A stretch of DNA of 59,257 nt from a bacterium (GCA_021845615.1 JAJZVP010000001.1:1-59257), one strand, 5' to 3'. Counted from the first letter of the stretch, positions 21,174-36,182 are shown. The notes: generated by a model not told the origin, from the letters alone. Numbers and translations: made by a program.

Positions 21174-22138
21174 GAGATCATCCCCAAGGAGCAGTGAACG
21201 AGCGCGGTCGCAATTGCGGGCACCGCAACCCCGAACGCGACGATGACTGCAAGAGCGGCGACGACGGCATCGCGGCGCCGACGGTCAGGTACGATGTCGC
21301 CTCTCGGCCGCAGCAAGACCTCTAAGCGGCCATACACCGCGTCGCGTTCGGCGAAAGCCGCGACCGGGCGCATTCCCGTGGATGTGGCACCGCGAGCGAC
21401 GCGCAAGAGCGCGGACGCGAGATCGGTGCGCTTCACGTGCGAGAGCGCGCAGTCATCAGCGCAGAACTCGCGCGAGCAACGGTAAACACCGATGAGGCGT
21501 TCGACCTGCAACGGCAGCAAATCGGTCAGGAAATAGAGCCACGGCGTCAAGCGATGATCGCCGCGCTCGATATGCGCGCGCTCGTGAAAGAGTGCCGCGC
21601 GCAGCTCCGGGTCGTCGAACTGCTGCAGCGAAAAGGTTGATGCGTACGCGCCGGGATGAGGGACATTGGCAACCATAATGAGCATTTCACGTTCGTCGCG
21701 CACTTCGAAGAGCGGAATACAGACCTCCGCAGCGATGCGCGCGGCCCGGCCGCGCGCCGGCTCCGCGTTCGCCAGCATCGCGCGCAGGTCGCGTTGCCGC
21801 CTGTGCGCGCGCACGATCGATCTCCCGATCGCCGCAGCGACGAGCGTGGCAAGGAACACGAAGAGCATCTTGCCGGCGGTCAGTTGCAAACAGGGGGAGT
21901 TGGTGCCCTCCGCGATCCCGAGAGCGACGAGTCCCAAAAAGAGCGCGCCGGGTACGCTTGCAGCGAGTGCGGCGAGGCCGGCCTGCCAGTAGCGGTCGTC
22001 GTGCATCGCTTCGATAGAAGGGGTCAGCGCCCGCACCCCCAGCCACGCTAACGGCGGGACGATCAGCGCCGCGCAAAGCGACGTAAACATCGCACCCGAG
22101 GTCAGACATGCGACGAGCAGCGCGGCGATTTGGTTCAC
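21170..22138 (-). CDS. M56 family (BlaR1/MecR1-like) membrane metalloprotease, no recognisable C-terminal sensor domain
   Basis: HExxH motif in FHERAHIERGDH, multiple TM segments, 322 aa. 4-nt overlaps with both neighbours. Confidence 0.75.
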   Translation of the reverse strand: MNQIAALLVACLTSGAMFTSLCAALIVPPLAWLGVRALTPSIEAMHDDRYWQAGLAALAASVPGALFLGLVALGIAEGTNSPCLQLTAGKMLFVFLATLVAAAIGRSIVRAHRRQRDLRAMLANAEPARGRAARIAAEVCIPLFEVRDEREMLIMVANVPHPGAYASTFSLQQFDDPELRAALFHERAHIERGDHRLTPWLYFLTDLLPLQVERLIGVYRCSREFCADDCALSHVKRTDLASALLRVARGATSTGMRPVAAFAERDAVYGRLEVLLRPRGDIVPDRRRRDAVVAALAVIVAFGVAVPAIATALVHCSLGMIS

Positions 22139-22557
22139 CGTTCTCCTCTTTCGCGTTGCTCGGCGAGCAGGCGCTCGAATTCTTGGAGCGACTCGGCGTC
22201 ATGCGCCATCGTCTCGGCTAAACTCGCGATGAGCGGACTGCGATAGTTGCGTAATAGTCCGCTCAGGACACCGCCGACGACGCGCCGGTCGAACTCCTCT
22301 TTCGAGAGCGCGGCGGCGAACGCGTTCGCGCGGCCGATGGAGCGCTTCTTCAAATAGCCCTTCTCGGTTAGCGTATTCAGGGTGGTCTTCGCCGACGAGT
22401 AATGCACGTGTTGGCCCGCGTTCTTCAGCCACTCGGCGACGTCACCGACGGTGATGGGGCGATCCATGGCCCAAACGGCATCCAGGACGAGGCTCTCCAG
22501 CGGTCCTAAAACAGCCGCTGAGCCAGCTTCATCTGGGCGGAATATTCGGGCCTCCAT
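22135..22557 (-). CDS. BlaI/MecI/CopY family transcriptional repressor
   Basis: 140 aa. Winged-helix pattern LGPLESLVLDAVWAMDRPITVGDVAEWL...YSSAKTTLNTLTEKGYL. Confidence 0.85.
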   Translation of the reverse strand: MEARIFRPDEAGSAAVLGPLESLVLDAVWAMDRPITVGDVAEWLKNAGQHVHYSSAKTTLNTLTEKGYLKKRSIGRANAFAAALSKEEFDRRVVGGVLSGLLRNYRSPLIASLAETMAHDAESLQEFERLLAEQRERGER

Positions 22558-22566
22558 ATGCCAAGG

Positions 22567-22595
22567 ACGTTAGCAGGTCTACGGGGAGGCGTCAA
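22567..22595 (-). promoter_or_regulatory. candidate sigma70-type promoter of the blaI operon (TTGACG-17-TAACGT), near-leaderless
   Basis: On the minus strand the -35 is TTGACG (plus 22590-22595) and the -10 is TAACGT (plus 22567-22572). Only 9 nt separate the -10 from the ATG and no SD is visible. Confidence 0.35.
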
Positions 22596-22610
22596 GGGGA
22601 TTCACCGATG

Positions 22611-22776
22611 TTGTAGGAGCAATGCAGAGATGTCCCCTCCTCAGCAAAGCAGAGATGTCCCCTCGACGGCCAACGGGCCTCCGATGGAGTTCATTACGAT
22701 GTCTCAGAGAGAACTTTCCCGCCTTCAGGCCGCCCAGCGTGTCCTCGACCGCTCCATGAGCGTGGCTGAGGCGGCG
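22611..22776 (+). mobile_element. truncated left end of an ISNCY-like IS (IR region plus first ~30 codons of transposase)
   Basis: About 120 nt are identical to 34816..34936 of the full copy, and the first ~45 nt are diverged. Homology stops abruptly after GAGGCGGCG at 22776. Confidence 0.8.
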
Positions 22777-22818
22777 GAATGTGGCAATGGGTTTGAGACC
22801 ACCGGAAGTTGAAAAATA

Positions 22819-23009
22819 CTACGCGGCCTCTGGCCGGTTGATGTAAACGACGGATTGGATCGCGGGCGGCTCCGGTGTACCGTGGACGAAACGTTCGGGA
22901 TGTGCCTTCCACGCGTTGAGCAGAACGGTGCGGCGCGCGCTCGTCCGCTCCTCGACCCGACCGTGATGAACGTCGCTCGGCGTGAGAAGCGCAAGACCGC
23001 TATGCCGTG
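22819..23009 (-). pseudogene. C-terminal fragment of a DDE (rve-type) transposase, cut by the IS3-family insertion at 23010
   Basis: HSGLALLTPSDVHHGRVEERTSARRTVLLNAWKAHPERFVHGTPEPPAIQSVVYINRP is a typical integrase-core C-terminal tail. The N-terminal part is absent from the window. Confidence 0.6.
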
Positions 23010-23063
23010 TGAAGCTGGCCCGGTTCCGTGGATACTTTCCGCTTGGCGGAGAAAGGTCCACCC

Positions 23064-23381
23064 ATGGCCAGAAAACATACCCACCCCTACCCGGCGGACT
23101 TCCGGCAGAAGGTTGTCGAGCTTGCTCGATCGGGTCGCGGCATCCATGACCTCGCAGCGGAGTTCAAGCTCGCGGGGCAGACGATTCGCAACTGGATCAA
23201 GCAAGCCGATTTGAACACCGGGCGCCGCAGCGACGGCTTGACGACCGCCGAGCATGAGGAGCTTGCGAAGCTTCGCAAGGAAAACCGACAGCTCAAGATC
23301 GAGCGCGAAATTCTGGGAAAAGCCGCAGCCTGGTTCGCTCGCGAGACCGATTCGATTCCCCCAAGGTCTTCGAATTCGTGA
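23064..23381 (+). CDS. IS3-family transposase OrfA (HTH)
   Basis: MARKHTHPYPADFRQKVVELARSG...LRKENRQLKIEREILGKAAAWFARE. A -1 frame change near 23358-23366 joins to ...KVFEFVKAHQ of orfB. Confidence 0.8.
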   Translation: MARKHTHPYPADFRQKVVELARSGRGIHDLAAEFKLAGQTIRNWIKQADLNTGRRSDGLTTAEHEELAKLRKENRQLKIEREILGKAAAWFARETDSIPPRSSNS

Positions 23382-24211
23382 AAGCGCACCAGGCCATTTG
23401 GCCCGTAACCACGCAATGCCGCGTTTTGGAAGTCTCGTCCAGCGGTTTCTATGCGTGGCTCAAGCGCGTGCCTTCGAAGCGATGCCAGGCAAATGCCGTG
23501 CTTGGTGATCGTATCGTCGCCTTGCATCGCGCATCGCTCGAAAACTACGGACGCCCGCGCATCCAAGCCGATCTTCGCGATGAGCAGATCTTCGTCAGCG
23601 ATAAGCGGGTGGCGAGATTGATGCGCGAGCGCAACATTCAGGGCGCCAGCCGTCGTAAGGCTTTTAAGACGACGATCCGCGACAAGGAAGCACGACCGGC
23701 GCCCGACTTGGTCAACCGACAATTCACCGCCTCTGCCCCCGATCAGCTCTGGGTTGCAGACATCACCTACGTACCAACATTGACCGGCTTCCTGTTTCTT
23801 GCGATCGTGCTCGACGTATTCAGCCGCCGCGTCGTCGGCTGGGCGATGGCGACACACATGAGAGCTGAGCTCGTCGTCGACGCGCTCGACATGGCCATCC
23901 ACAACCGAAAACCGACGAACGTGATTCACCATTCCGACCAAGGATCGCAATATACGTCAATTGCCTTCAGCAAGCGCTGCGATAGCGCCGGCGTCCATCC
24001 TTCGATGGGTTCGGTTGGCGACTGCTACGACAACGCAATGTGCGAGAGCTTCAATGCGATCCTCGAATGCGAATTGCTCGTCAAGCACCGCTTCGCGACG
24101 CAACGTGCGGCGGCGCTCAAAGTCTTCGAGTTCATCGAGGGCTACTACAATCCACGACGTCGGCATACGGCGATCGGGAACATCTCCCCGATGGAGTTCG
24201 AGCTGACGTAG
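23378..24211 (+). CDS. IS3-family transposase OrfB (DDE), last codons displaced by the nested IS
   Basis: Integrase core pattern (HHSDQGSQYTS, GSVGDCYDNAMCESF). The ORF runs into the inserted element at 24204, and the native C-terminus resumes at 25424. Confidence 0.8.
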   Translation: MKAHQAIWPVTTQCRVLEVSSSGFYAWLKRVPSKRCQANAVLGDRIVALHRASLENYGRPRIQADLRDEQIFVSDKRVARLMRERNIQGASRRKAFKTTIRDKEARPAPDLVNRQFTASAPDQLWVADITYVPTLTGFLFLAIVLDVFSRRVVGWAMATHMRAELVVDALDMAIHNRKPTNVIHHSDQGSQYTSIAFSKRCDSAGVHPSMGSVGDCYDNAMCESFNAILECELLVKHRFATQRAAALKVFEFIEGYYNPRRRHTAIGNISPMEFELT

Positions 24212-24220
24212 CCCCATTTG

Positions 24221-25084
24221 TCAGGCCGCTTCGAATTGTGGCCGAGTGTTTTTCAGTCCTTCGCGATACTGCTGCGCAAATTCTGCTGGCGTAAGGTATT
24301 TTAGCGAGCCATGGGGCCGGTGCGTATTGTATCGAATTCTCCATTCCTCGACGGTCGCTCGGATCTGATCCATGGTTAGAAACCAATGCTCGTTCAGGAC
24401 TTCGTCCCGTAGGCGCCCGTTGAAACTCTCGATCTTCCCGTTCTGCGTCGGCTTCCCGGGATCGATGAAATGCAATTTGACATTTTTTTCGGCGCCCCAC
24501 TTGAGCATCGCTAAACTCGAGAACTCGGGGCCATTGTCGAATTTTACGGTTGCAGGATAGCCCCGTTCCGCAGCAATTTGCTCGAGAACGCGAATGACGC
24601 GGCGCGCAGGCAATGAGGAATCAATTTCGATCGCTATGCTCTCGGCGGTGAAATCATCGATGACGGTCAGGAGGCGAACGTTGCGCCCGTTGGCAAGCGT
24701 GTCATGAACGAAATCCATCGACCAGCGTTCGTTCGGTGCCGTAACGGTGGGGGACGTCGCTCCGCGAACGTATCGAGCGTGGCGTTTTTTGCGTCTACGA
24801 ACCTGCAATTCCGCGGTACGATAGATGCGGTAGAAGCGCTTATGATTCATGGAAATGGCATGGTCGCGTCGAAGGATGAAGTGCAGCTTGCGATACCCGG
24901 ATCGGCGATTCTCTTCGACCAATTGATGGATAAGTGTCAGCAACCGCAAATCAGTGGTTCGCTTGAAACGATACTGTGCTGTCGATCGAGGGCATCCAAT
25001 AAGCGCGCACGCCCGCCGTTCGCTATACCCGCGCTGGTCCTGCAGCTCATGCACCGCTGCGCGGCGGCGGGCAGAGCTTACCAT
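24221..25084 (-). CDS. IS407-like transposase OrfB (DDE)
   Basis: 287 aa integrase-core pattern. Fused to orfA by a -1 frameshift at the A7 run (plus-strand T7 at 25084-25090). Confidence 0.85.
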   Translation of the reverse strand: MVSSARRRAAVHELQDQRGYSERRACALIGCPRSTAQYRFKRTTDLRLLTLIHQLVEENRRSGYRKLHFILRRDHAISMNHKRFYRIYRTAELQVRRRKKRHARYVRGATSPTVTAPNERWSMDFVHDTLANGRNVRLLTVIDDFTAESIAIEIDSSLPARRVIRVLEQIAAERGYPATVKFDNGPEFSSLAMLKWGAEKNVKLHFIDPGKPTQNGKIESFNGRLRDEVLNEHWFLTMDQIRATVEEWRIRYNTHRPHGSLKYLTPAEFAQQYREGLKNTRPQFEAA

Positions 25085-25344
25085 TTTTTTGTACTGAGAT
25101 ATTTCAAAGCGTCGATATCCATCGCTTGGTTTGCGACGATCCGCTTGAGGCGGCTATTTTCTTCCTCAAGCTGCTTTATCCGCATAACGTCGCTCACTTC
25201 GAGGCCGCCATACTTGCCTTTCCAGTTCCGAAGCGTGTTCGGGTGGATGCCGTGCTTTCTGCAGATCTCGGCGGTCATGCCCGTCGCGTCGTGCTCTTTG
25301 AGAATCTCGACGATCTGCGCTTCCGTGAAGCGAGTTTTCTTCAT
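25078..25344 (-). CDS. IS407-like transposase OrfA
   Basis: MKKTRFTEAQIVEILKEHDATGMTAEICRKHGIHPNTLRNWKGKYGG...LKRIVANQAMDIDALK is the classic IS407-group OrfA. Confidence 0.85.
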   Translation of the reverse strand: MKKTRFTEAQIVEILKEHDATGMTAEICRKHGIHPNTLRNWKGKYGGLEVSDVMRIKQLEEENSRLKRIVANQAMDIDALKYLSTKKW

Positions 25345-25494
25345 AGAGGGTCTCCTTAACGAGGCGTTTTGCCTCAGAGACCACAATTTCATTTGGCCCG
25401 AATTTACGGGGCTACGTCAGAGCGGCGCATGAGTCAGGCTGCTTGATGTCTAACCCAAAACCCTCCGCGAAAGCGGGCCAGCTTCACCTTTACT

Positions 25495-25525
25495 CCCCGA
25501 GCCGTCGGCTATTGACGGCTCGGGG
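25495..25525. other. perfect 12-bp stem hairpin (CCCCGAGCCGTC-7 nt-GACGGCTCGGGG) in the remnant DNA after the IS3 right end
   Basis: Read directly. Function unknown, possibly a terminator or an IS-associated structure. Confidence 0.3.
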
Positions 25526-25652
25526 GAGCCCTTTCGCGGTTGGAAAGGGTGAGGGCGTTTTCTTTCTCGCTACCCGGGGGCGTTTACGTTATCGCTAGCA
25601 TCGTGCGTTCTTCTTTTTTAGAGCTAGTTGTTGGACTGCTGCGACGACTCGA

Positions 25653-26294
25653 TCAGTCGTAGCAGCAGTCGTCATCAGAAAACGCTTCCCGGCCTTCCTT
25701 GATTAGGAAGCACAGCACGCCCAGAGAGGCGACGGCATCAATCCACCACCAGCCGAAGACGTATTGGGCCCCGAGGCCAGTGAGCACGATCAACGATAGA
25801 TAGCTACACGCAATTGCCTCGGCGCCATCGGCTTTGAGGGCACGGCTCTCGAGTATGCTGCCAAGGTGCCGCTTACGCCGACCGAGAGCGACCATGAGCG
25901 GAAATGCCACTAGCGTGAGTAAGAAGCCGACGAGCGTGAACGCTTCACCGCTTCGATGGACCAGCGACAGAATCGAAGCAATCAGCACGTATGCGGCCAG
26001 CACGAACAGCAGCGAGCCCGCAACAACCGCGGCGCGCCGTTCCACCGACTCGTCGAAATCGTTACCATCACGGCCTTCAACGTAGAGGCGTCGTGCTACG
26101 ACGGCTGCCGAGATTAGTTCGACGACGCTGTCGAGACCGAAGCCGAGCAGCGACACGCTGTGCGCCTGAATCGCCGAGACGATGGCGATCGCCGCCTCGG
26201 CGATCATCCAGGAAATCGTGAGCCACTGCAGGGCGATCGCAGCCGAAATCAGGCGGTGACGATCAGTCAACATGCTGCCGCGCAATCGGTGCAT
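25653..26294 (-). CDS. short CDF-like cation transporter (transmembrane domain only, COG3965-like)
   Basis: About 210 aa with 5-6 TM segments. SLLGFGLDSVVELISA resembles the CDF TM2 site. The C-terminus ends in DDDCCYD. Confidence 0.55.
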   Translation of the reverse strand: MHRLRGSMLTDRHRLISAAIALQWLTISWMIAEAAIAIVSAIQAHSVSLLGFGLDSVVELISAAVVARRLYVEGRDGNDFDESVERRAAVVAGSLLFVLAAYVLIASILSLVHRSGEAFTLVGFLLTLVAFPLMVALGRRKRHLGSILESRALKADGAEAIACSYLSLIVLTGLGAQYVFGWWWIDAVASLGVLCFLIKEGREAFSDDDCCYD

Positions 26295-27151
26295 TCGATT
26301 TCCACCGTGGCATGTGTTACGTCGAACTCATGATGGAGCAGTTCCTTCGCGCGCGACACAATGTCGGGTGCACCTTCGAGTTGAGCCTTCGCAACCCGCA
26401 GATGCAGGCTTGTCGCAACACCCCCATCCGTAACGCACCACACGTGAACATCATGCACATCTTCGATTGGAAGATTTCTGCGCAAGGAGCTGCGCATCGC
26501 ATCGACATCAAGCCCTTGCGGGACGCCTTCAAGCAGGACGTTGAGCGATTCCCTCAATACATCCCAAGCGGATCGAATGACGAGGATCGCAGCGAGGATG
26601 GATACAGCCGGGTCAATCGCGGCTACCCGGGTGAAAAGTATCGCAATCGCCGCCACCACTACGGCGCCTGAAATGACTGCATCGCCAGCAACGTGCGCAA
26701 TCACTGCGCGGACGTTTAGCGTCGACTCACCGCGCGACAGATACCATCCAAGAGCAACATTCAGAATAATTGACGCTGCGCCAATCGCCATCATAATAGT
26801 TGAATCGACGGCTTCGGGGCGTGAGAAGCGTAGAATTGCCTCATACACGATCACGCCTACAATAAGCAACAAGGCAGTGGCGTTTGCGAGCGCAGCGAGG
26901 ATCGTTGCCCTACCATATCCGTAGGTTCGCTTCTTGTCGGGGCCACGCTTGGCCATGCCGGCCGCCCAAAGAGCCAGCGCCGCTGCGCCAACATCGGTCA
27001 ACATGTGAGCGGCATCAGTGAGCAGCGCTAGGCTGTGTGCAAAAAAACCACCCAGCGCCTCAAATGTGAGAATAAGAAATGTAACGGCGAGCGCTATCCG
27101 CAGTTGCGGAATAGACGAACCCCGGTTGTGACTGTGGTCGTGGGCTTGCAC
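26267..27151 (-). CDS. cation diffusion facilitator (CzcD/ZitB-like) efflux transporter
   Basis: His-rich N-terminus (MQAHDHSHNRGS), LALLTDAAHMLTD (TM2 HxxxD) and IAHVAGDAV (TM5), plus a C-terminal cytoplasmic domain. Confidence 0.85.
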   Translation of the reverse strand: MQAHDHSHNRGSSIPQLRIALAVTFLILTFEALGGFFAHSLALLTDAAHMLTDVGAAALALWAAGMAKRGPDKKRTYGYGRATILAALANATALLLIVGVIVYEAILRFSRPEAVDSTIMMAIGAASIILNVALGWYLSRGESTLNVRAVIAHVAGDAVISGAVVVAAIAILFTRVAAIDPAVSILAAILVIRSAWDVLRESLNVLLEGVPQGLDVDAMRSSLRRNLPIEDVHDVHVWCVTDGGVATSLHLRVAKAQLEGAPDIVSRAKELLHHEFDVTHATVEIECTDCAAAC

Positions 27152-27846: not shown

Positions 27847-29564
27847 TTACCAACATCCAAAGTAAGCGTCCTCTGAAGGCCGTCTTGACGACGAGCAAGC
27901 CGCGTGTTGAGCCGGCGATCGGCTCGACGCCGGAAGTGCGAACGTCTCGGCGCTGTCGGTGATGTGCATGGCTTCGGACGACTTCAGATTCCATGGCAGC
28001 AGTTCGGCGATGCGGTTGATCGGATGATCGGCGATGCGCGCGAGCACCTCGCGTGAAAACGCTTCGAGATTGAGGCCGTTGAGTTTGGCGCTGCCGAGCA
28101 GGCTGTGGAGCGCTGCAGCGCGTTCGCCGCCGGCGTCGCTACCGGCGAACAGGAAGTTCTTGCGTCCCAGCGCAACGCGCGTTCGGCGGCGTTGTTATCG
28201 ATCTCGATGCAGCCGTCCTCGCAATAGCGGCAGAGCGCCTCCCAGCGATGCAGGGCATAGAAGATGGCTTTGGCAAGCGCGGATTTGCGCGAGAGCGGTA
28301 CGAGCGTTTGTTGCAGCCAAAGGTGCAACGCAGCGAGCAGCGGGCGGCTGCGTTCCCGGCGCACCGCGCGGCGTTGGTCTGGAGGTTGCTCGCGAATCGC
28401 TTTTTCGATGGCGTAGAGCGCGCCGATCCGATCGAGCATCTCTGCGGCGATGGCCGATGCGTTGGCCGCGTGCAGATCGAAGAACTTGCGCCGTACGTGC
28501 GCCCAGCACGCCGCTTCGCGCACCTGCCCGCCCTCGTAGAGCTTGGCAAAGCCTGCATAGCCGTCGGCGTGCAAGACGCCGGTAAAATCTTTGAGATGCC
28601 TTTGCGGGTTTTCGCCCTTGCGATCGGGCGAGTAGGCAAACCAGACCGCAGGTGCCGCTTTCCCGGCACACGGGCGCTCGTCGCGCACGTAGGTCCACAG
28701 TCGCCCGGTTTTGGTTTTTCCGCGCCCGGGCGCGAGCACCGGAAGCGGCGTATCGTCGCCGTGCACGACGTCGGCGGCGAAGACGTGTGTGCGTAGCGCA
28801 TCGGTGAGCGGCGCGAGCAAGGCCGCGGTATTCCCCACCCACTGCGCGAGCAGCGTGCGGTCGAGTTCCACCCCTTCGCGCGCGTAGATCTCCGCTTGGC
28901 GATAGAGCGGCAGGTGATCGGCGTACTTGCCGACGAGCACGTGGGCGAGCAGCCCCGGCCCGGCCATGCCGCGCTCGATCGGGCGCGTCGGTGCCGACGC
29001 CTGCACGATCGTATCGCAGTGGGTGCAGGCGAGCTTCGGGCGCACGGTGCGCAGCACTTTGAAGCGCACCGGCTCGAGCTCGAGTATCTCCGAAACGTCC
29101 CCACCGAGCTGCTTGAGCGCACCGCCGCAATCGGGGCAGGCTTCGTCGCGCGGCATGATAGTATTCGTTTCGCGCGGCAGATGCACGGGGAATGCACGCC
29201 GCAGTTTTGGGGCGCGCTCCGCAGCGGGTGCTGGCTGCGCGCGTTCGGTCAGCGCGCTGGTGAGGTGCGCTTCGACCGTCTCGAGCTCTTCAACCCACAG
29301 CTCCAACTGCTCGATCTGCTGCTCGCGCTTTTCGCTACGGCGTCCGAATTGCAGGCGGCGTAGTTTGAGAATTTGTAGTTTGAGGCTTTCGAGGAGCAGC
29401 GCGCTGGATATTATCTGCGCATCTCTGGCGACGATCTGCTCGTCCTTGATGGCGATCTGCTCATCCTTGGTGGCGATCCGTGCGTGCTGTTCGTGTAGCA
29501 ACGATTTCAATTCAGCGATGCTCAACCCGTCGAGATCGGGGAGCGTTCCGTTCGCTGAATCCAT
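27847..29564 (-). pseudogene. IS66 TnpC transposase with a frameshift near 28170
   Basis: The main frame ends ...IEIDNNAAERALRW. The conserved continuation LGRKNFLFAGSDAGGERAAALHSLLGSAKLNGLN...ADHPINRIAELLPWN is in another frame (track ORF 27847..28047). Confidence 0.75.
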
Positions 29565-29662
29565 GCAGCTATCGTACCGAATAAACGCACCGTGTCAAGC
29601 ACATTGCGTCATCATCGCAAGAAACAAATCAAGAAACGCAACGCGCGCATCGCGCTGCATCT

Positions 29663-30022
29663 TCACACTTCGATCGACGGCGCAGCGGTGCGCACCGGAT
29701 GGCGCCAATCGATTCCTTCGAGCAACATCGAGAGTTGCGCTGGACTCAGCGAGACGCTCCCGCTCTGCGCCTGCGGCCAAATGAAACGCCCGCGCTCCAA
29801 ACGCTTGGCCATCAAGCACAGGCCCGTGCCATCCCACCACAATACCTTGAGCAGATCGCCGCGCCGTCCGCGAAACAAGAACAGGTGCCCGCAGAACGGA
29901 CTGCGCGCGAGCGCGTTCTGCACCAGCGCGCTTAAACCGGTGAAGCCTTTGCGCATATCGGTTATGCCGGCGGCAAGCCAAATGCGCGTGCCGGTCGGAA
30001 CGCTCGTCGGCACTACGCTCAT
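29663..30022 (-). CDS. IS66 Orf2 (TnpB)
   Basis: MSVVPTSVPTGTRIWLAAGITDMRKGFTGLSALVQ...LFLFRGRRGDLLKVLWWDGTGLCLMAKRLERGRF. ATG overlaps the tnpA stop. Confidence 0.85.
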   Translation of the reverse strand: MSVVPTSVPTGTRIWLAAGITDMRKGFTGLSALVQNALARSPFCGHLFLFRGRRGDLLKVLWWDGTGLCLMAKRLERGRFIWPQAQSGSVSLSPAQLSMLLEGIDWRHPVRTAAPSIEV

Positions 30023-30423
30023 CGCTGCAACGCCGCTACCAGCGCGCAGAGCAACCCGGCGTCGAGCGCATCGCTCTCGATCCGTAGCGTCGCACCGGAA
30101 GTGAACGTCAGGTGCACGACACTCAAGGCGCCGGAATGCGAACCAGATGACGGTTGCGGCGCACGCCCAGTAGCAGCGATCGTCACCGGAAGAAACGTCG
30201 CGCTCGACGCGACGGAACGAGCGCGCGACCGCGGCTCCGTGGTGAGCTTGCCGGCACGATAGAGCGCTTGCCATTGATAGAGACTATTGCGGCTCACACC
30301 CTGCTCGCGCGCGATCGCCAGAACCGATGCACCAGCGCGCAACGTGAGCTCGACTAGGCGGCGCTTTTCAGCGAGCGATAGGCGGCGTGCTGCGCGCCGA
30401 TGCGGCGCTGCCGATACTTCCAT
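30019..30423 (-). CDS. IS66 Orf1 (TnpA, HTH)
   Basis: RRLSLAEKRRLVELTLRAGASVLAIAREQGVSRNSLYQWQALYRAG is typical of IS66 orf1. Confidence 0.75.
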   Translation of the reverse strand: MEVSAAPHRRAARRLSLAEKRRLVELTLRAGASVLAIAREQGVSRNSLYQWQALYRAGKLTTEPRSRARSVASSATFLPVTIAATGRAPQPSSGSHSGALSVVHLTFTSGATLRIESDALDAGLLCALVAALQR

Positions 30424-30592: not shown

Positions 30593-31312
30593 CTAGGCGC
30601 CAACCCGCCGATGGTCACGGTTCATACACCACGCGCTGGGACACGATCTCGCGTCCTCGGGATAATCAAGTTTAAGGCGATGGGAAATCTGTTCTGGGCT
30701 CCAGCCTACAGCCCAACGGCGCTTCTGGCGAAAGACGGCTCGACGCCCTTTCCAAACGATTTGGGGATTTTTTACAAGGGTGTTTTGGGGACCGCTGATT
30801 TGTCCAGCGAGTCTTTCCTGAACATAAGCGTGCAGACGGACGTTTCTTACTAATTTCGCTATTGTTGGGCGACGAGCAGCGCGATCTGCATGCCATTGCG
30901 CATTACTAGCCCGATAATCCATTGCACCGCAGCGTGTAGCTGCGTTTCGACGTAATTCGCGGGAAATTGTGGACGGTGTTCTATCGAGCCGACGAGCAAT
31001 GCTGCGAACGCCGTGGCCTTGAGCGCGCAGAACTGCAATTTCTTCTCGCTCCGCGAACGAAAGGTAACGACCCGAGAGCGGCTTTGATGAGCGAGAAAAA
31101 TGCTTTGGTGGCATTCCGCCAGCTTGCCGAAAGCACCTTATACCAACAGGCGGTGATATCCCAGCATCAATTGCTGCGTTTTCGCTACTTCGGCCCGCTG
31201 CAACGGCCTTCCAGAAAATATGATAATTCTCGCGAAGTGCCGCGGGCGGACGCCCCGGCGAACGCAATGCTTTTCTTAGGATCAGCCCTCGGGCGAGGTT
31301 TTTGGGTTTCAA
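30593..31312 (-). pseudogene. IS30-family transposase, N-terminal HTH part only (DDE domain missing)
   Basis: LSFAEREEIAVLRAQGHGVRSIARRLDRTPSTISRELRRN and WSPEQISHRLKLDYPED match the IS30 N-terminal half. The sequence degenerates after that and no catalytic domain follows. Confidence 0.7.
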
Positions 31313-31331: not shown

Positions 31332-31628
31332 ATGTTGCTTCGACCGGTTGAATCCGCCCAGTATGCCAGCGATGCGGTTCATCGCTTTTACGACCGAAAC
31401 GGAATGCTCTGCAGCATGAGCCGCCAAGGCAACTGTTGGGACAACGCGGTGACCGAGAGCTTCATAGCGACGCTCAAGCGTGAACTCGATGATCCCACCT
31501 TCGACTCTCGTGAAGCGGCGAGGGCAACTATTTTCGAATACGTCGAGATCTGGGGCAATCGGCAACGTCGGCACTCAACGCTCGGATGCGTCAGCCCCGA
31601 GCAGTTCGAGAAGACTCAGGCTGCGTAA
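31332..31628 (+). pseudogene. C-terminal fragment of an IS3-family OrfB
   Basis: SAQYASDAVHRFYDRNGMLCSMSRQGNCWDNAVTESFIATLKRE...RHSTLGCVSPEQFE. Everything upstream of the DDE third motif is missing. Confidence 0.75.
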
Positions 31629-31747
31629 ACTTCGTGTCTGCAAAATCGAAACCACTCCAAGGGTCTACCTCCATCTCTCATGCAGCTTCTCGCATATTCA
31701 GCGCGAGCGTTTCATCGCGTAGCTTCTCCTATGCTGCTGTAGCACAC

Positions 31748-31771
31748 AGACGGCCTTCAGAGGACGCTTGC
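31748..31771. repeat. solo IS66-type terminal inverted repeat
   Basis: AGACGGCCTTCAGAGGACGCTTGC is the reverse complement of the 27862-27885 IR at 23/24 positions (by eye). Confidence 0.8.
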
Positions 31772-31877
31772 GGAGTGACAACACTTCGTGCGCTGCTCGG
31801 GGTGACAGCACGGCGCGCCTAGATCCGGCGGCTTCGCCGCCTACTCGGGGTGACAGCCGCCTGCGCGGGGTGACAGC
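31771..31877. repeat. four direct copies of CGG(G/A)GTGACA(G/A)C with irregular spacing
   Basis: Copies start at 31771, 31798, 31846 and 31866. The first and last extend to about 23 nt (GGAGTGACAACACTTCGTGCGCT vs GGGGTGACAGCACTTCGTGGGCT). Confidence 0.7.
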
Positions 31878-31887
31878 ACTTCGTGGG

Positions 31888-33288
31888 CTATCCCGCGCAG
31901 CAGGACAACTTTCCGAGGTCCTTATTGAAACCGACCGCCGCGAGCTTTAGCCCCTCGACCATCGTTAAATATGGGAAGATCGTATCGGCAAGATCCGTAA
32001 CCGTTAAGCCGTGTTTGATTGCAAGCACGGCAGCCTGAATGCTATCGCCGGCCTCCGGCGCAAGAATGTGCGCACCGAGCAGTTTCCCCGTTGCGCGGTC
32101 GGCGACCAACTTGAAGAAGCCGCGCGTATCGCGCGCGGCAAGCGCGCGCGGCACGTCATGCAGTTCGAGCCGCACCGTTTGCACGTCGAAACCGCGCGCG
32201 GTCGCCGCCTCCTGCGTGAGCCCAACGGTTGCAACTTGCGGGTCGGTGAACGTTACCTGCGGCATCGCACGAGCATCATAGGTTCGCCCCGATCCACTCA
32301 GTGCATTTTCGACGGCAACCTTCGCTCCGTATGCGGCCATATACACGAAGAGATCGCGCCCGGTCACATCGCCAGCGGCGTAGGTGCCCGCACGGCTCGT
32401 CTGCATCTGTGCATCGACATCGATTCCGCCGCCTACGTTGGTACGAATACCAACCTCTGCGAGCCCAAGCCCCGCACTATTGGGCGTGCGCCCCGTAGCA
32501 ATCAGGACGCGTTCTGCAGCGATCTCTTCGCGCATTCCGTCGGCGTTGCGCACGGTTAACACCGCGCCATCATTGTTTGCGGCAATGCGTTCGTATGTAA
32601 GCGCACAACGCACATCAATACCTTCAGCGCGCAAGTAGCTCGCCAACGCGTCGCTAATCTCGGCCTCCTCGGTCGGCAGCAGACGCGAGCGGCACAGTAT
32701 CGTTACGTGCACACCGGCGCGTGCAAACATTTGCCCGAGTTCACACCCAATGACTCCGCCGCCGATCACCATCATTGATGCGGGAAGTTCGCGTAGTTCG
32801 AGCGCCGTGGTACTTGTCAGCCAACCGACCTTTTCCAGCCCCGCAATCGCAGGCGTTCGTGGCGCAGCGCCGGTAGCGATGACGATCTTCCCCGGTTGAA
32901 TGAGGTCGCCGTCGATATCGATTCCATCTCGCGTCAGGCGCGCGCGCCCCTCGATATATTCGATCTCTTCGTACGCCGGCAGCAAATCGCGATACTTCGC
33001 TTGGCGCAATGCACCGACGAGTTCGTCTTTCTGCGCGATCACGCTCGCCCAGTTCGTTATCCGCGCACTGGCTTCAATGCCAGCGAAGCGCGATGCGGCG
33101 TGCGCACCATGCAGTGTCTCGGTTGCGCGAATCAGCGTCTTCGATGGCACGCAGCCGATATTCACGCAGGTGCCACCGATTGTGCCGTAGCCTATGAGCG
33201 CGACGCTAGCGCCGAGTTCCGAGGCGCGAATTGCAGCGGAGAAACCCGCAGAACCCGCACCGATCACCGCGAGATCAGGGGTGCGCAT
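31888..33288 (-). CDS. merA: mercuric reductase MerA, core form without N-terminal HMA (NmerA) domain
   Basis: Start at MRTPDLAVIGAGSAG (ATG 33288, TGATG overlap with the upstream gene). Redox-active GGTCVNIGCVPSK. C-terminal vicinal Cys pair ...KLSCCAG. Confidence 0.85.
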   Translation of the reverse strand: MRTPDLAVIGAGSAGFSAAIRASELGASVALIGYGTIGGTCVNIGCVPSKTLIRATETLHGAHAASRFAGIEASARITNWASVIAQKDELVGALRQAKYRDLLPAYEEIEYIEGRARLTRDGIDIDGDLIQPGKIVIATGAAPRTPAIAGLEKVGWLTSTTALELRELPASMMVIGGGVIGCELGQMFARAGVHVTILCRSRLLPTEEAEISDALASYLRAEGIDVRCALTYERIAANNDGAVLTVRNADGMREEIAAERVLIATGRTPNSAGLGLAEVGIRTNVGGGIDVDAQMQTSRAGTYAAGDVTGRDLFVYMAAYGAKVAVENALSGSGRTYDARAMPQVTFTDPQVATVGLTQEAATARGFDVQTVRLELHDVPRALAARDTRGFFKLVADRATGKLLGAHILAPEAGDSIQAAVLAIKHGLTVTDLADTIFPYLTMVEGLKLAAVGFNKDLGKLSCCAG

Positions 33289-33812
33289 CAGCGTCCCGCT
33301 GCAAACGCCGCGATCTGGCTCCAATGTGCTGCTGGCGCGCTGCTCTGCGCGCGCACGCGGCCATGCCGGTCGACGAGATAGAAGATATCGGGGGCGCTGC
33401 TTGGGTCCAGTGCCAGCGATTGCTGCGCCGTTAATTCCCCCCAATACCAGGTCGGCGACGCGCCAGTCGCGCCAATGCTGTCGCGAATCGACTTCAGAGT
33501 CGGCCCGGCGTAGCCGAGATCGCCTGCGGCTTCAAGTTGCACGACGCGAAAGCCATCGTGGCGCAATTGCACGACATGGCTTGCCAGTACATGCGCGCCG
33601 GTAACGCAGGAGGGGCACCAGGTCGCCATCACCCAGAGGAGATAGCGATGCCCGTGCAACGTGCGCGCACTCACGCGTGCACCACCGAGTAATCGATAGG
33701 TGAACGCAGGCGCTGGTTTTCCAACCGTAATGCTTTGCACGGTTGCAGCAACCGGGCGTACACCGCTAGCAAGCGCTATGAGTGCGAGTGCAAGGACGAT
33801 TCGTTTCATCAT
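33288..33812 (-). CDS. exported thioredoxin-fold (TlpA/redoxin-like) protein, WCPSC motif
   Basis: Signal peptide MMKRIVLALALIALASG, then GKPAPAF...LLWVMATWCPSCV. Confidence 0.75.
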   Translation of the reverse strand: MMKRIVLALALIALASGVRPVAATVQSITVGKPAPAFTYRLLGGARVSARTLHGHRYLLWVMATWCPSCVTGAHVLASHVVQLRHDGFRVVQLEAAGDLGYAGPTLKSIRDSIGATGASPTWYWGELTAQQSLALDPSSAPDIFYLVDRHGRVRAQSSAPAAHWSQIAAFAAGR

Positions 33813-34351
33813 GAAATTCCTTTACCAATGGGGATGGGGCAAGCTGCGTTCGAGGTACGCACCGCTAGCCAGAGCGAGCCGAGCACTGCAATCACTGCCG
33901 CGCCGATAATCTCAGCGCTATAGGTTGCAAAGAAACCTTGGAAACGCCCGGTGAGATGCAGAACTGCTGGCGCACTTGCACCCAGCGCTGCAAGTGCACT
34001 GGGAATGAGCGTCGTGCAGCAGAGGCTGCTCGGGAGCAAGGCCGCAACCGCTCCGCTGAATGAGAGCGCGCCCTGCGGTGCGCGGGCAGCATTGCTGCTC
34101 AAATTGATCGCAAAGGCTAGCGTGGTGCCGTAGCCGATAACGACTGCGGCGAACAGCTGCCACGGTGTGATGAACGCAAGCGCACCGAGCGCAAATGCAC
34201 CAAACTGTTCTGCGGGTAATGCGATAGCGTAGAGAAGCCCAAGAGCAGTCCCAAGACCGAACACCAATAGCGCACTCTGCAACCGCCGCGTTTCAAACGC
34301 TCGAGCAACTGCGATGCGAAACGAACGAAAGGGTTGCATACTCGCTTCCAC
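33809..34351 (-). CDS. polytopic membrane protein with vicinal Cys pair in a hydrophobic segment (candidate Hg(II) transporter)
   Basis: 180 aa with 4-5 hydrophobic segments. LLPSSLCCTTLIPSALAALG (CC codons at 34016-34021) and a C-terminal AACPIP. 4-nt overlap with the downstream gene. Confidence 0.6.
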   Translation of the reverse strand: MEASMQPFRSFRIAVARAFETRRLQSALLVFGLGTALGLLYAIALPAEQFGAFALGALAFITPWQLFAAVVIGYGTTLAFAINLSSNAARAPQGALSFSGAVAALLPSSLCCTTLIPSALAALGASAPAVLHLTGRFQGFFATYSAEIIGAAVIAVLGSLWLAVRTSNAACPIPIGKGIS

Positions 34352-34357
34352 TCCTGC

Positions 34358-34714
34358 TTACGTTAGCCGCGTGCAGGCTTCAATGTGCGCGGCGTTGCGC
34401 GCCACGACACTCTGCGCGAGTGCGACGATCTCGGCGATCCGGGGATCTCCGAGTTCGTAGATCACGAACTTGCCACGCCGCTGCGTGCGCACGTAGCCGC
34501 ACCACTTCAAGCACGATAGATGATTGCTCACCCGGCTCTGCGCTAGGCCCAGCGCTGCGACCAGTTCGCCGACGCTCTTGGGCCCGTCGAGCAGCAGCCG
34601 CACGATGCGCAGCCGCGTCTCATCGGCTAGGCCGGAGAAGAAGCGCGCGTAGAGCGCCGAGCCGAGTTCCGCCTGGGAGTCGAGCGGTGGGTTTGGGCGA
34701 ACAGTTGTGTGCAT
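34358..34714 (-). CDS. ArsR/SmtB family metalloregulator
   Basis: FSGLADETRLRIVRLLLDGPKSVGELVAALGLAQSRVSNHLSCLKWCGYV is the HTH_5 pattern with the CxxxC in SCLKWCG. Confidence 0.85.
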   Translation of the reverse strand: MHTTVRPNPPLDSQAELGSALYARFFSGLADETRLRIVRLLLDGPKSVGELVAALGLAQSRVSNHLSCLKWCGYVRTQRRGKFVIYELGDPRIAEIVALAQSVVARNAAHIEACTRLT

Positions 34715-34725
34715 GGGGTATCGGC

Positions 34726-34753
34726 ATCATATCAGTATGTTATGATTTGTCAA
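34726..34753 (-). promoter_or_regulatory. promoter TTGACA-16-TATGAT with embedded palindrome ATCATA-N9-TATGAT, upstream of arsR-type gene
   Basis: Minus-strand -35 is plus 34748-34753 and the -10 is plus 34726-34731. Only 11 nt separate the -10 from the ATG (34714). Palindrome arms are at 34726-34731 and 34741-34746. Confidence 0.5.
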
Positions 34754-34770
34754 GCGCCTCAAGGCTGCTT

Positions 34771-36162
34771 TTGTAGGAGCGATGCAGAGATGGTCCCCTA
34801 CTTAGCAAGGCGGAGGTGTCCCCTCGACGGCCAACGGGCCTCCGATGGAGTTCATTACGATGTCTCAGAGAGAACTTTCCCGCCTTCAGGCCGCCCAGCG
34901 TGTCCTCGACCGCTCCATGAGCGTGGCTGAGGCGGCGTCGACCCTGGGACTCTCGACCCGCCAAGTCAAGCGGCTCACGCGCCGCCTGCGCAGCGAGGGT
35001 GCCGCAAGCTTCGCCTCGCCGCGCCGCAGCCGGCCGCCCAATAACGCCCTCGATCCGTCCACTCGAGCGCGCGTGCTCGCTCTGGCGCAAGCGGCCTACG
35101 TTGGTTTCGGCCCCACGTTCCTCGCCGAGAAACTCGCCGAACGCGATGAGCTCGCAATCAGCCGCAAGACGCTGCGGCAGTGGTTTATTGCAGCGCAGTT
35201 GCATCGCCCGCGGCGGCGCCGTCATCAGCCACGACCGCTTCGCGAGCGGCGGGCGCGCGTGGGCGAGTTGATCCAAGCCGATGGCTCACCGCACCATCGG
35301 TTTAAAGAACGACGTGGCGTCTGCACGCCCTTGCTCTATGTCGACGACGCGACGACAACGATTCTCGGCGGTCTCTTTGCCGAGCACGAAACCAGCGACG
35401 CGTACTCCGAGCTTTTCGAACGAGCGTTCAGCGAACATGGACTGCCGATAGCGCTCTACACCGATAAGCACAGCATCTTTCGCATCAATAATCTCGACAG
35501 CACGGTTGATGACGACACCCATGTCAAACGCGCGTTACGTGAACTCAACGTCGAACTGATCTGCGCGAATTCTCCGCAAGAAAAGGACCGCCTCGAACGC
35601 GCAAACCGCAGCTTGCAAGATCGCCTTGTCAAAGAATTGCGCCTGGCTAATTTCAGTACGATCGCAGCAGCAAGTGCTTTCCTTCCACAGTTTCTCGTCG
35701 CCTACAACCGGCGCTTTGCCATCGCACCGCGCGAAGCAATCGATACCCATCGCCCTGCGACCGCATCGGTGCTCGCAGCAATCCTTACCAAACGCTACCA
35801 ACGCGTCCTCGCAAGCGAGCTCACTTTTCAAATACACGACAATATTATTGCGCAATTGATCCTTCGCCATTGCATCGATTACGAAAGGGCATGCGCATCA
35901 CCGTCAATCTGCCGCGTACGGGCATTCCCGAAGTACTCCACAACGAGCATCGCATCATCACGCGCCTCGTTGGCGCCCGACAACGCACTGGCCAGGTCGT
36001 CGGGAGCAAGGAACTCAATGCAACCATTGATCGCTGCGTTACAACGCCCAAGAGCTCGGCGCATACCCCACCCCCAACGCACCCCTGGCGCGCTGGATTC
36101 GATCCAGTTCGCCTCGCTCGGCTCCGCGTCGACAGGGGACATCTCTGAATTGCTAGACGAGG
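34771..36162 (+). mobile_element. ISNCY-like insertion sequence, full copy (boundaries +/- ~10 nt)
   Basis: Left-end motif (A)GCAATGCAGAGATGTCCCCT-like and right-end AGGGGACATCTCTGAATTGCT (36134-36154) form IRs. The CAGAGATGTCCCCT motif occurs twice at the left end. Confidence 0.7.
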
Positions 36163-36182
36163 ACATTACCGCTTTGCGCTAA
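34845..36182 (+). CDS. ISNCY-family DDE transposase
   Basis: MSQRELSRLQAAQRVLDRSMSVAEAASTLGLSTRQVKRLTRRLRSEGAASF...ELIQADGSPH...LYTDKHSIF is as I recall for ISNCY (IS1202-group-like) transposases. The ORF reads ~20 nt past the right IR. Confidence 0.65.
   Translation: MEFITMSQRELSRLQAAQRVLDRSMSVAEAASTLGLSTRQVKRLTRRLRSEGAASFASPRRSRPPNNALDPSTRARVLALAQAAYVGFGPTFLAEKLAERDELAISRKTLRQWFIAAQLHRPRRRRHQPRPLRERRARVGELIQADGSPHHRFKERRGVCTPLLYVDDATTTILGGLFAEHETSDAYSELFERAFSEHGLPIALYTDKHSIFRINNLDSTVDDDTHVKRALRELNVELICANSPQEKDRLERANRSLQDRLVKELRLANFSTIAAASAFLPQFLVAYNRRFAIAPREAIDTHRPATASVLAAILTKRYQRVLASELTFQIHDNIIAQLILRHCIDYERACASPSICRVRAFPKYSTTSIASSRASLAPDNALARSSGARNSMQPLIAALQRPRARRIPHPQRTPGALDSIQFASLGSASTGDISELLDEDITALR

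Follow-up and report, generated by a model that had tools for sequence, protein, structure and literature searches.

Positions 31888-34753 of a 59,257-nucleotide stretch of bacterial DNA (GCA_021845615.1 JAJZVP010000001.1:1-59257, referred to at its full length as the window) are assigned here to a mercury-detoxification operon, read on the minus strand and composed of a promoter and four tightly packed genes in the order arsR-X-TRX-merA. The new part of this operon is the pair formed by X, a small membrane protein, and TRX, an exported redoxin; its ArsR control, its core-type mercuric reductase MerA and the island flanked by insertion sequences (IS) in which it resides are already known. Comparison of gene neighbourhoods identifies the pair as a mobile and conserved accessory module of mercury resistance (mer) operons, associated with two regulator types and present in both bacteria and archaea. 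We lean slightly towards a reading in which TRX would capture Hg(II), X would pass it inward and MerA would reduce it, the pair filling the slot of MerT and MerP.

The four genes of the operon are the following:

34358..34714, minus strand: arsR, 118 amino acids, from the open reading frame (ORF) listing and translation
33809..34339, minus strand: gene X, membrane protein, 176 amino acids from the ATG at 34339 (180 amino acids from an alternative GTG at 34351)
33288..33812, minus strand: gene TRX, redoxin, 174 amino acids, thioredoxin fold with WCPSC
31888..33288, minus strand: merA, core-only mercuric reductase, 466 amino acids

These gene identities had been proposed in a preliminary description of the same DNA, and all four are upheld. 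The genes had also been described as translationally coupled. Read on the minus strand, X and TRX overlap by 4 nucleotides (ATGA) and TRX and merA share a TGATG overlap, both as announced; the 7-nucleotide gap reported between arsR and X has to be corrected to 6 nucleotides if X starts at GTG 34351 or to 18 nucleotides if it starts at ATG 34339. The latter start is preferred: it is the one used in the database copy and in the closest homologues, whose sequences open with MQPF... or M..., and it is preceded by GGAG/GGAAG motifs. The earlier account of a 180-amino-acid polytopic membrane protein with a vicinal cysteine pair in a hydrophobic helix and an ACPIP ending is accurate as to its motifs and less so as to its length, 176 amino acids being more likely. 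No intrinsic terminator was found 3' of merA by a terminator scan. Over the whole 59-kb window, a tblastn search combined with a motif scan detected no relative of MerR, MerT, MerP, MerC, MerF or MerB, confirming that, MerB apart, none of these proteins had been overlooked when the region was initially read. The motif scan likewise found no HMA motif anywhere in the window, and the sole CC-x(1-4)-P located within a hydrophobic stretch there is the one of X.

The comparison of gene neighbourhoods covers 61 loci: the window itself and genome fragments of uncultured bacteria and archaea, 23 of them reached through a genome scan or by looking up exact proteins and 37 recovered by a metagenome scan seeded with an 18-sequence alignment of a distant X sub-clade. 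X and TRX adjoin in 54 of these loci and contig ends account for five of the seven others. A MerA with a C-terminal vicinal cysteine pair (CC) is encoded in 35/61, including every close relative of the window locus with enough contig, ArsR in 29/61 and MerR in 4/61. MerC is present in two loci, MerF in one and MerB in three (L023, L045 and L046). MerT, searched for with a local hidden Markov model (HMM), and free MerP occur in none of the 61, and HMA is seen only as an NmerA domain fused to MerA. By comparison, merT is carried by 54% and merP by 49% of mer operons (PMC3466566). This distribution fits a substitution of MerT and MerP by X and TRX.

The order of the genes varies considerably around the constant pair. 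Eremiobacterota loci are arranged as arsR-X-trx-merA or with merA divergent from arsR-X-trx, and L018, which comes from a Micrarchaeota archaeon, shares with L022 the order X-trx-arsR-merA. Other arrangements are merR-merC-merA(NmerA)-trx-X in L020/L021, merR-merA-trx-X-grx in L019 and merR-merB-merF-X-trx-merA in L023. The 37 metagenome loci of the distant clade are organized as X-TRX(-TRX), usually accompanied by ArsR and by a MerA that has the CC at its C-terminus. The genes flanking the pair change from locus to locus, with chemotaxis in one and cobalamin in another. Linkage of the membrane protein to mer, for which the preliminary description called, proves to be strongly conserved over the 61 loci, and the coexistence of the pair with MerC or MerF indicates an accessory module that is not always the sole transporter.

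X carries SSLCCTTLIPSALAALG together with a C-terminal ACPIP. Its vicinal cysteines C107 and C108 lie within the third transmembrane helix (TM3; LLPSSLCCTTLIPS) and a further cysteine, Cys167, is found in the ACPIP of the tail. The protein has no Pfam or NCBIfam match at E<=1. A word-indexed search of 5.8 billion proteins returned 29 relatives, all unnamed, two of which come from metagenome-assembled genomes (MAGs) of Vulcanimicrobiaceae; when a profile was run exhaustively against 1.84 billion cluster representatives, the family grew to 114 clusters at E<=1e-3, whose members are all unnamed or called 'hypothetical protein'. An 87-sequence alignment of this family shows no substitution at C107 or C108 and at least 90% conservation at Y37, P113 and C167; the consensus around the cysteine pair reads LLPSxLCC[TS]PxxP[TS]LLA. 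A tail cysteine is present in 93% of the family and at least two in 72%. The AlphaFold2 model of X, computed from the 29-sequence alignment, consists of four long helices with a mean predicted local distance difference test (pLDDT) score of 75.5. Mean lysine plus arginine counts per segment across the family (N-terminus 3.6; loop 1 0.8; loop 2 2.4; loop 3 0.5; C-terminal tail 4.1) support, by the positive-inside rule, a topology in which both termini are cytoplasmic, the cysteine pair lies in TM3 and the cysteine-bearing tail faces the cytoplasm. An internal duplication was considered and rejected, the N-terminal and C-terminal halves of X matching each other with a probability of only 0.6% in hhalign.

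The relationship of X with known mercury transporters was assessed by profile-profile comparison with hhalign, in which the X family was aligned to a 24-sequence MerT alignment and to reversed and column-shuffled controls. The X family matches MerT with a probability of 80.7% (E 1.3e-5) over 73 columns, in a register that places the cysteine pair of X on MerT C24/C25, C167 on C76 and the second consensus tail cysteine on C82. Reversed MerT reaches 9.9% and 30 column-shuffled MerT alignments no more than 1.0%. The signal resides in the C-terminal half, which alone scores 80.3%, versus 0.8% for the N-terminal half. The actinobacterial MerT of plasmid pMM23 (LLCCAGP...RRHRRQDC), compared as a single sequence, gives 55% with the same register for the CC and the tail cysteine. 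Sub-threshold Pfam MerT matches are also obtained for nine of the 29 close X homologues (best 20.2 bits versus a gathering threshold of 32.9); they fall both in an N-terminal CCAGP extension, not present in the X of the window, and in the C-terminal core that the family conserves. That the CC helix recalls TM1 of MerT, as first noticed by eye, holds in a controlled profile-profile comparison.

The other transporter families are more distant. The X family scores 33% against MerF, where the match is confined to the CC helix, 21% against MerC and 0.4% against MerH, and X has no Pfam or NCBIfam match to MerC (PF03203), MerF (PF11431), MerE or MerH. An assignment of X to MerH, the known four-helix transporter of pMM23 and of similar size, was rejected on the basis of this 0.4% probability and of the position of the MerH cysteine pair in TM1. 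DsbD, CcdA and DsbD_2 (PF02683, PF13386) match none of 116 X-family members, of which 29 were searched at E<=10 and 87 at E<=1. X is neither an ordinary member of the MerT, MerC, MerF, MerE or MerH families, with no HMM match at E<=1, nor a generic CcdA/DsbD, two outcomes that the preliminary description had named as refuting its interpretation. It is probably a distant and re-architected relative of MerT, in which a two-helix N-terminal unit is probably combined with a MerT/MerF-like CC hairpin and a cysteine tail, and which belongs to no named family by the usual thresholds.

The likeness to MerT (PF02411), in its Tn501/Tn21 and actinobacterial pMM23 types, extends to architecture and position. 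In both proteins, a vicinal cysteine pair followed by a proline in an outward-running helix precedes a return helix and a cytoplasmic cysteine, MerT residues 14-88 being the in-register counterpart of the C-terminal half of X. The MerT slot lies directly after the regulator, as in the arsR-merT order of pMM23, which is also the place of X, and both proteins are partnered with an exported CxxC protein. There are also differences. MerT possesses three helices with the CC in TM1, whereas X has four with the CC in TM3, lacks the equivalent of MerT TM3 and carries two extra N-terminal helices with conserved motifs of their own (Y37, LPAE). The motif itself is CC-[TS]-P or CC-x4-P in X and CC-x2-P in MerT. 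The layout of the C-terminal half of X, a helix with CC, a second helix and a cytoplasmic cysteine, is that of MerF, which has two transmembrane helices. MerC and MerH have four helices each, as does X (PMC3466566), with the CC in TM1, unlike X. MerF, MerC and MerH are all small cysteine-pair membrane proteins of mer operons, and none has an obligatory redoxin partner.

Many X homologues are longer, at about 250 amino acids, owing to an extra N-terminal helix pair (P0007-P0029 long forms, alignment A1 columns 1-95; P0032, P0096). The first extra helix bears a second vicinal cysteine pair (CCAGPF or CCLGPL) nearly identical to TM1 of the pMM23 MerT (LLCCAGP). These long forms have six helices, with a second CC helix at their N-terminus; they give the impression of an X core to which a hairpin of MerT type has been joined, an extension that the X of the window does not have.

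TRX begins with MMKRIVLALALIALASGVRPVAA, which reads as a signal peptide. It just reaches the cut-off of AhpC-TSA, PF00578 (26.6 bits versus 26), misses that of Redoxin, PF08534 (25.5 versus 26.6), falls far below that of DsbE, TIGR00385 (24 bits versus 123) and also misses the ResA and TlpA thresholds. Its nearest PDB sequences are Etrx, CcmG, DsbE and ResA at E values of about 1e-4. Together with the WCPSC motif, the AhpC-TSA score and the PDB matches are in keeping with the earlier view of the third gene product as a signal-peptide-bearing thioredoxin-fold protein; the single-sequence AlphaFold2 model (pLDDT 37) is unusable. A set of 12 diverse homologues retains C66 and C69 without exception. 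Every TRX homologue has a signal peptide or is anchored in the membrane by its N-terminus, and the motifs W-C-x-x-C, GYPGP and YPDIYYL show no variation among them. Between the active-site cysteines the dipeptide is x-[S/T] throughout, with 22 CSSC, 16 CPSC, 3 CDSC and others, and never x-P. In terms of fold, TRX differs from MerP, the former adopting a thioredoxin fold of about 150 amino acids and the latter a 72-amino-acid HMA ferredoxin-like fold. In the distant clade (L036, L042, L045-L048, L052, L054 and others in L025-L061) the module takes the form X-TRX-TRX, and the second TRX paralogue has GGCASC in place of WCSSC.

The reductase encoded by the last gene scores 532.2 bits against TIGR02053, above the equivalog cut-off of 454.45, and is 45% identical to the MerA of pMM23. 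Its translation contains GGTCVNIGCVPSK, IFPYLTMVEG and a C-terminal KLSCCAG, the redox-active C-x4-C being GGTCVNIGC. The flavin adenine dinucleotide (FAD) motif starts at residue 5 and there is no NmerA/HMA domain; accordingly, the full-length MerA model NF010311 aligns over its positions 99-560 only. NmerA is an optional rather than a defining domain of MerA. The protein thus corresponds in every respect to the core-only MerA ending in SCCAG that had been recognized initially. It possesses the redox-active C-x4-C, the C-terminal vicinal cysteine pair and the FPYLT tyrosine (Tn501 Y605) by which MerA is distinguished (PMC3466566).

The first gene encodes a member of the ArsR/SmtB family, with scores of 86.6 bits for NF033788 (cut-off 55) and 62.9 bits for HTH_5, PF01022 (cut-off 22) and a winged helix-turn-helix (HTH) domain. 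It displays a CmtR-type alpha4C site made of C67-x3-C71 (LSCLKWCG) and a C-terminal C114, all three cysteines being invariant across 15 orthologues, one of them archaeal. The best PDB match is the Cd/Pb sensor CmtR (2JSC), whose SNHLSCLRGCG aligns with SNHLSCLKWCG of the window protein; the alpha4 C-x3-C and the C-terminal cysteine are common to both, although the window protein remains below the CmtR equivalog cut-off (NF047906, 72.2 bits versus 150). These scores and this alignment vindicate the designation of the gene product as an ArsR/SmtB regulator with SCLKWCG. Its closest known parallels are the actinobacterial ArsR-type mer regulators of Mycobacterium marinum pMM23, to which it is 45% identical, and of Streptomyces lividans (named 'MerR'), the host phylum of the window being Eremiobacterota. 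We propose that it is a predicted Hg(II)-responsive repressor. ArsR-type regulators are present in 8.1% of mer operons, and ArsR-type mer repressors are known in Sulfolobus and Streptomyces (PMC3466566). The operon had been called non-canonical in part for its ArsR control and core-only MerA; both are ordinary features that were already documented, the ArsR control in the same survey and in pMM23. The operon is of the ArsR-regulated, core-MerA type, as that of Mycobacterium pMM23, which the literature also describes in Streptomyces and some archaea.

Transcription would start from a single promoter, the only sigma-70-like site within 31700-34900, which overlaps a candidate operator:

34726..34753, minus strand: operon promoter, -35 TTGACA at 34753-34748, 16-nucleotide spacer, -10 TATGAT at 34731-34726
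34729..34748, minus strand: candidate ArsR operator, inverted repeat A(A)ATCA-N8-TGATAT overlapping the -35/-10 spacer

The promoter matches 11/12 sigma-70-like positions and TG precedes its -10 hexamer. The same -35/-10 arrangement is found upstream of arsR in 13 related loci, where the sequence TTGACAtATCA-N8/9-TGATAT(A/G)AT is conserved. The operator consensus across loci is ATATCA-N8/9-TGATAT, of which the window copy has one left-arm mismatch. A palindrome previously noted at 34726-34746 (ATCATA-N9-TATGAT) corresponds to this conserved element in an overlapping, alternative register; the element is retained, and the register is replaced by that of 34729-34748. The position of the repeat between the hexamers is typical of a repressor operator, and we infer that ArsR binds it. 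The arsR ATG is located 11 nucleotides after the -10 in the window (34715-34731) and 7 nucleotides after it in several related loci; this short distance of 7-11 nucleotides, which covers the window and the upstream regions of L005, L009-L011 and L013, indicates that the operon mRNA is probably leaderless or nearly so.

Taken as a whole, these components suggest the following sequence of events. In the absence of Hg(II), an ArsR dimer bound to ATATCA-N8-TGATAT between the -35 and -10 hexamers would block transcription, and binding of Hg(II) to the three-cysteine CmtR-type site would free ArsR and derepress the operon. Outside the cytoplasmic membrane, Hg(II) would be captured by the C-x-S-C of exported TRX, which would play the role of MerP. 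By thiol exchange, the ion would move to the vicinal cysteine pair in TM3 of X, a probable homologue of MerT, and then to the cysteine of its cytoplasmic tail. The C-terminal cysteine pair of MerA would take Hg(II) from X without the help of NmerA, and the FAD/C-x4-C centre of this enzyme, assigned as MerA by score and motifs, would reduce it to volatile Hg(0). Such a chain of thiol exchanges, analogous to the passage from MerP through MerT to MerA, is the simplest reading. Generalized beyond the window, the pair may represent an unrecognised and widespread two-component mercury-handling system, a proposition whose chances we hold to be about even. TRX would have been recruited as an extracytoplasmic Hg(II) carrier or as an X-dependent reductase stripping Hg from thiols. 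X would represent a new branch, with four to six helices, within the MerT superfamily and would move either Hg(II) or reducing equivalents through its vicinal cysteines. Together they would replace MerT and MerP in other lineages as well as in Eremiobacterota and in one archaeon of the Micrarchaeota.

A number of observations weigh against Hg(II) capture and import by the pair. TlpA/ResA-type thioredoxin-fold proteins are normally redox enzymes and not metal carriers. The link to MerT is suggestive, resting on short, hydrophobic, low-complexity-like segments compared with templates of low diversity (a MerT alignment with an effective number of sequences of 1.5 and the single pMM23 MerT), and the X of the window has no Pfam MerT match at E<=10 with a plain HMM. 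Its tail contains a single cysteine, when most of the family has more. A Foldseek search of the PDB with the AlphaFold2 model of X is uninformative, the best hit (E 0.45) being a helical hairpin of the V-ATPase c-subunit. At the level of gene content, X and TRX are found together with MerC (L020/L021) or MerF (L023) in three loci, next to a flavoprotein reductase other than MerA in L014, L016 and L017, and without MerA within 4 kb in several distant loci such as L036 and L052.

The main alternative is a transmembrane thiol/disulfide reductant relay comparable to CcdA/DsbD with TlpA/ResA, which would not import Hg(II) at all. X would carry electrons from cytoplasmic thioredoxin or from MerA, and the redoxin would maintain the thiols of the envelope in reduced form, or free them of Hg, under mercury stress. 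In the pairing of CcdA/DsbD with TlpA/ResA/CcmG, as in that of X with TRX, a small polytopic membrane protein is encoded side by side with an exported or anchored CxxC thioredoxin-fold protein; X and TRX are inherited together, often with a translational overlap, and TRX is most similar to the TlpA, ResA, CcmG and Etrx reductases, all of which need a conduit for electrons in the membrane. Extra flavoprotein disulfide reductases adjoin the module in some loci. Its coexistence with the true Hg importers MerC and MerF points in the same direction but is not decisive, since canonical operons of the Tn21 type carry MerT together with MerC. We nevertheless regard such a relay as unlikely. Similarity to DsbD, CcdA or DsbD_2 is absent from all 116 X-family members, the sole detectable homology of X being to MerT. 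Known relays use separated or CxxC cysteines, CcdA having six helices with one cysteine in each of two of them, whereas the four helices of X include one with an invariant vicinal CC-Pro, the Hg-ligand signature of MerT, MerF and MerC. The C-x-P-C by which ResA, TlpA and CcmG are typified is never seen in TRX, whose site is C-x-[S/T]-C in all cases. CcdA/TlpA relays belong to a cytochrome c maturation context and X+TRX to a mer context, and the absence of MerT and MerP from 61/61 loci is better explained by their replacement.

If the module handled some other thiophilic substrate, or a wider range of them (for instance organomercurials, a further soft metal or metalloid, or selenium or sulfur species), the link with MerA would be one of several uses. 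Such a role would account for the loci without MerA in their 4-kb flanks, for MerB in L023, L045 and L046, and for L014, L016 and L017, where the pair is followed by a reductase devoid of the MerA CC, ending in HPTLAE, with a TGA codon at the first active-site cysteine and a MerA score of 401 versus 454 bits. We judge it improbable in view of the bona fide MerA with C-terminal CC in 35/61 loci, of a regulator closest to the ArsR-type regulator of the pMM23 mer cluster and of the rarity of MerB (3/61). Finally, X and TRX could be passengers unconnected to mercury in an IS-bounded island, as the mosaic nature of this island and the absence of both proteins from any named family might suggest. 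However, the pair recurs beside merA across genomic contexts, gene orders, ArsR or MerR regulators and domains of life, and the window genes overlap the stop and start codons of their neighbours within a single promoter unit. The synteny survey effectively refutes a passenger status, to which we attach a very small probability. Capture by TRX followed by import through X stays the interpretation towards which we incline, if only slightly; as first put forward it is partly supported, having withstood the computational tests applied here and drawing strong support from the comparison of loci.

Two broad surveys of mer operons list merT, P, C, F, E, G and H, arsR, merR, merD and TRASH, with no redoxin or X-like protein (PMC3466566, PMC8261052), and a full-text literature search of incomplete coverage returned nothing on a mer-linked redoxin/membrane-protein pair. 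No X homologue, close or distant, is present in the 72,556 plasmids of PLSDB, which is probably the reason for the lack of earlier work on the pair. Surveys scoring merT, P, C, F, E and H would rate operons of this kind as reductase-positive and transporter-negative. Occupying the transporter slot in at least 60 loci, the pair adds a sixth candidate type of Hg transporter and the first thioredoxin-fold candidate for the role of MerP, and the operons that carry it constitute a natural experiment on the delivery of Hg(II) from the membrane to a core-only MerA without NmerA.

The operon sits in an IS-rich metal-resistance island of an Eremiobacterota genome (Vulcanimicrobiia/Baltobacteraceae-like). 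The surrounding features of the window are listed below:

16135-19344: ORF of 1069 amino acids adjoining the CusB/HlyD-like gene
19341-21173: CusB/HlyD-like membrane-fusion gene
24221-25084: intact IS3 transposase
26267-27151: cation diffusion facilitator (CDF) cation-efflux gene
27984-30423: complete IS66, with tnpC at 27984-29564, tnpB within 29663-30274 and tnpA at 30019-30423 (Pfam DDE_Tnp_IS66, TnpB_IS66, HTH_Tnp_1)
30593-31312: IS30-type HTH fragment, merA side (Pfam HTH_38)
31332-31628: IS3 integrase C-terminal fragment, merA side (Pfam rve_2/rve_3)
31770..31889: direct repeats, 3-4 copies of a unit of about 25 nucleotides containing GGGGTGACAGC, between the merA stop and the IS3 fragment
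34845..36182, plus strand: transposase-like ORF with an HTH_28/29/32 N-terminus (Pfam matches), promoter side, divergent

With a complete IS66 and fragments of IS30 and IS3 type on one side and an HTH_32 transposase-like ORF on the other, the island is IS-bounded as had been surmised. Pfam detected no intact DDE domain in the transposase-like ORF at 34845..36182, and the GC (guanine plus cytosine) content of the operon shows no difference from its surroundings. Judging from its genes, the region 14865-27151 looks like a metal-resistance island, in which the 1069-amino-acid ORF may be a resistance-nodulation-division (RND) pump. The 12-mer GGGGTGACAGC exists in three copies confined in the window to 31770..31889 and is absent from the 61 fetched loci; these repeats, immediately downstream of merA, may delimit an inserted segment and may be a transposon end or a recombination site. 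An ORF encoding an OsmC-like protein of the peroxiredoxin family (36342-37046) lies on the promoter side beyond the transposase-like gene, with no evident operon link. The names of related MAGs (DX1, YF1, BP5, MAS1, FW021) resemble those given to metagenomes from mining-impacted sites and the Oak Ridge aquifer.

Several neighbouring genes of the related loci deserve mention. A second flavoprotein disulfide reductase, distinct from MerA (GGECAYWAC...FPTY.E, no C-terminal CC), is encoded in several X-TRX mer loci and in pMM23; it is found as minus-strand ORFs adjoining X in L029, L030, L042 and L044, as well as in L034/L035 and at L024:10305-11657. Downstream of merA in L023, a 97-amino-acid ORF (L023:6678-6971) encodes a transmembrane helix with a vicinal CC (VACCLAIPLL) and has no NCBIfam match; it may be another small Mer-type membrane protein.

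In three FW021 bins, X-TRX is followed by a class-I flavoprotein disulfide reductase (L014, ~1-1300, minus strand; L016:6126-7544; L017:1165-2583), and arsR precedes the pair in L016. An in-frame TGA falls exactly at the first active-site cysteine of this reductase (GGT*MNVGCIPTK), whose C-terminus, HPTLAEG, has no MerA-type CC. When U is read as C, the protein scores 401 bits as MerA (cut-off 454) and 400.9 bits as lipoamide dehydrogenase (cut-off 408.8). Six nucleotides past the UGA begins a perfect 6-bp hairpin, GUGGGG-UGCAU-CCCCAC, for which no covariation support was found. Such a family is missing from a review of prokaryotic selenoproteins published in 2026. We regard the reductase as a candidate selenocysteine enzyme, the centre of which would be U-x4-C.

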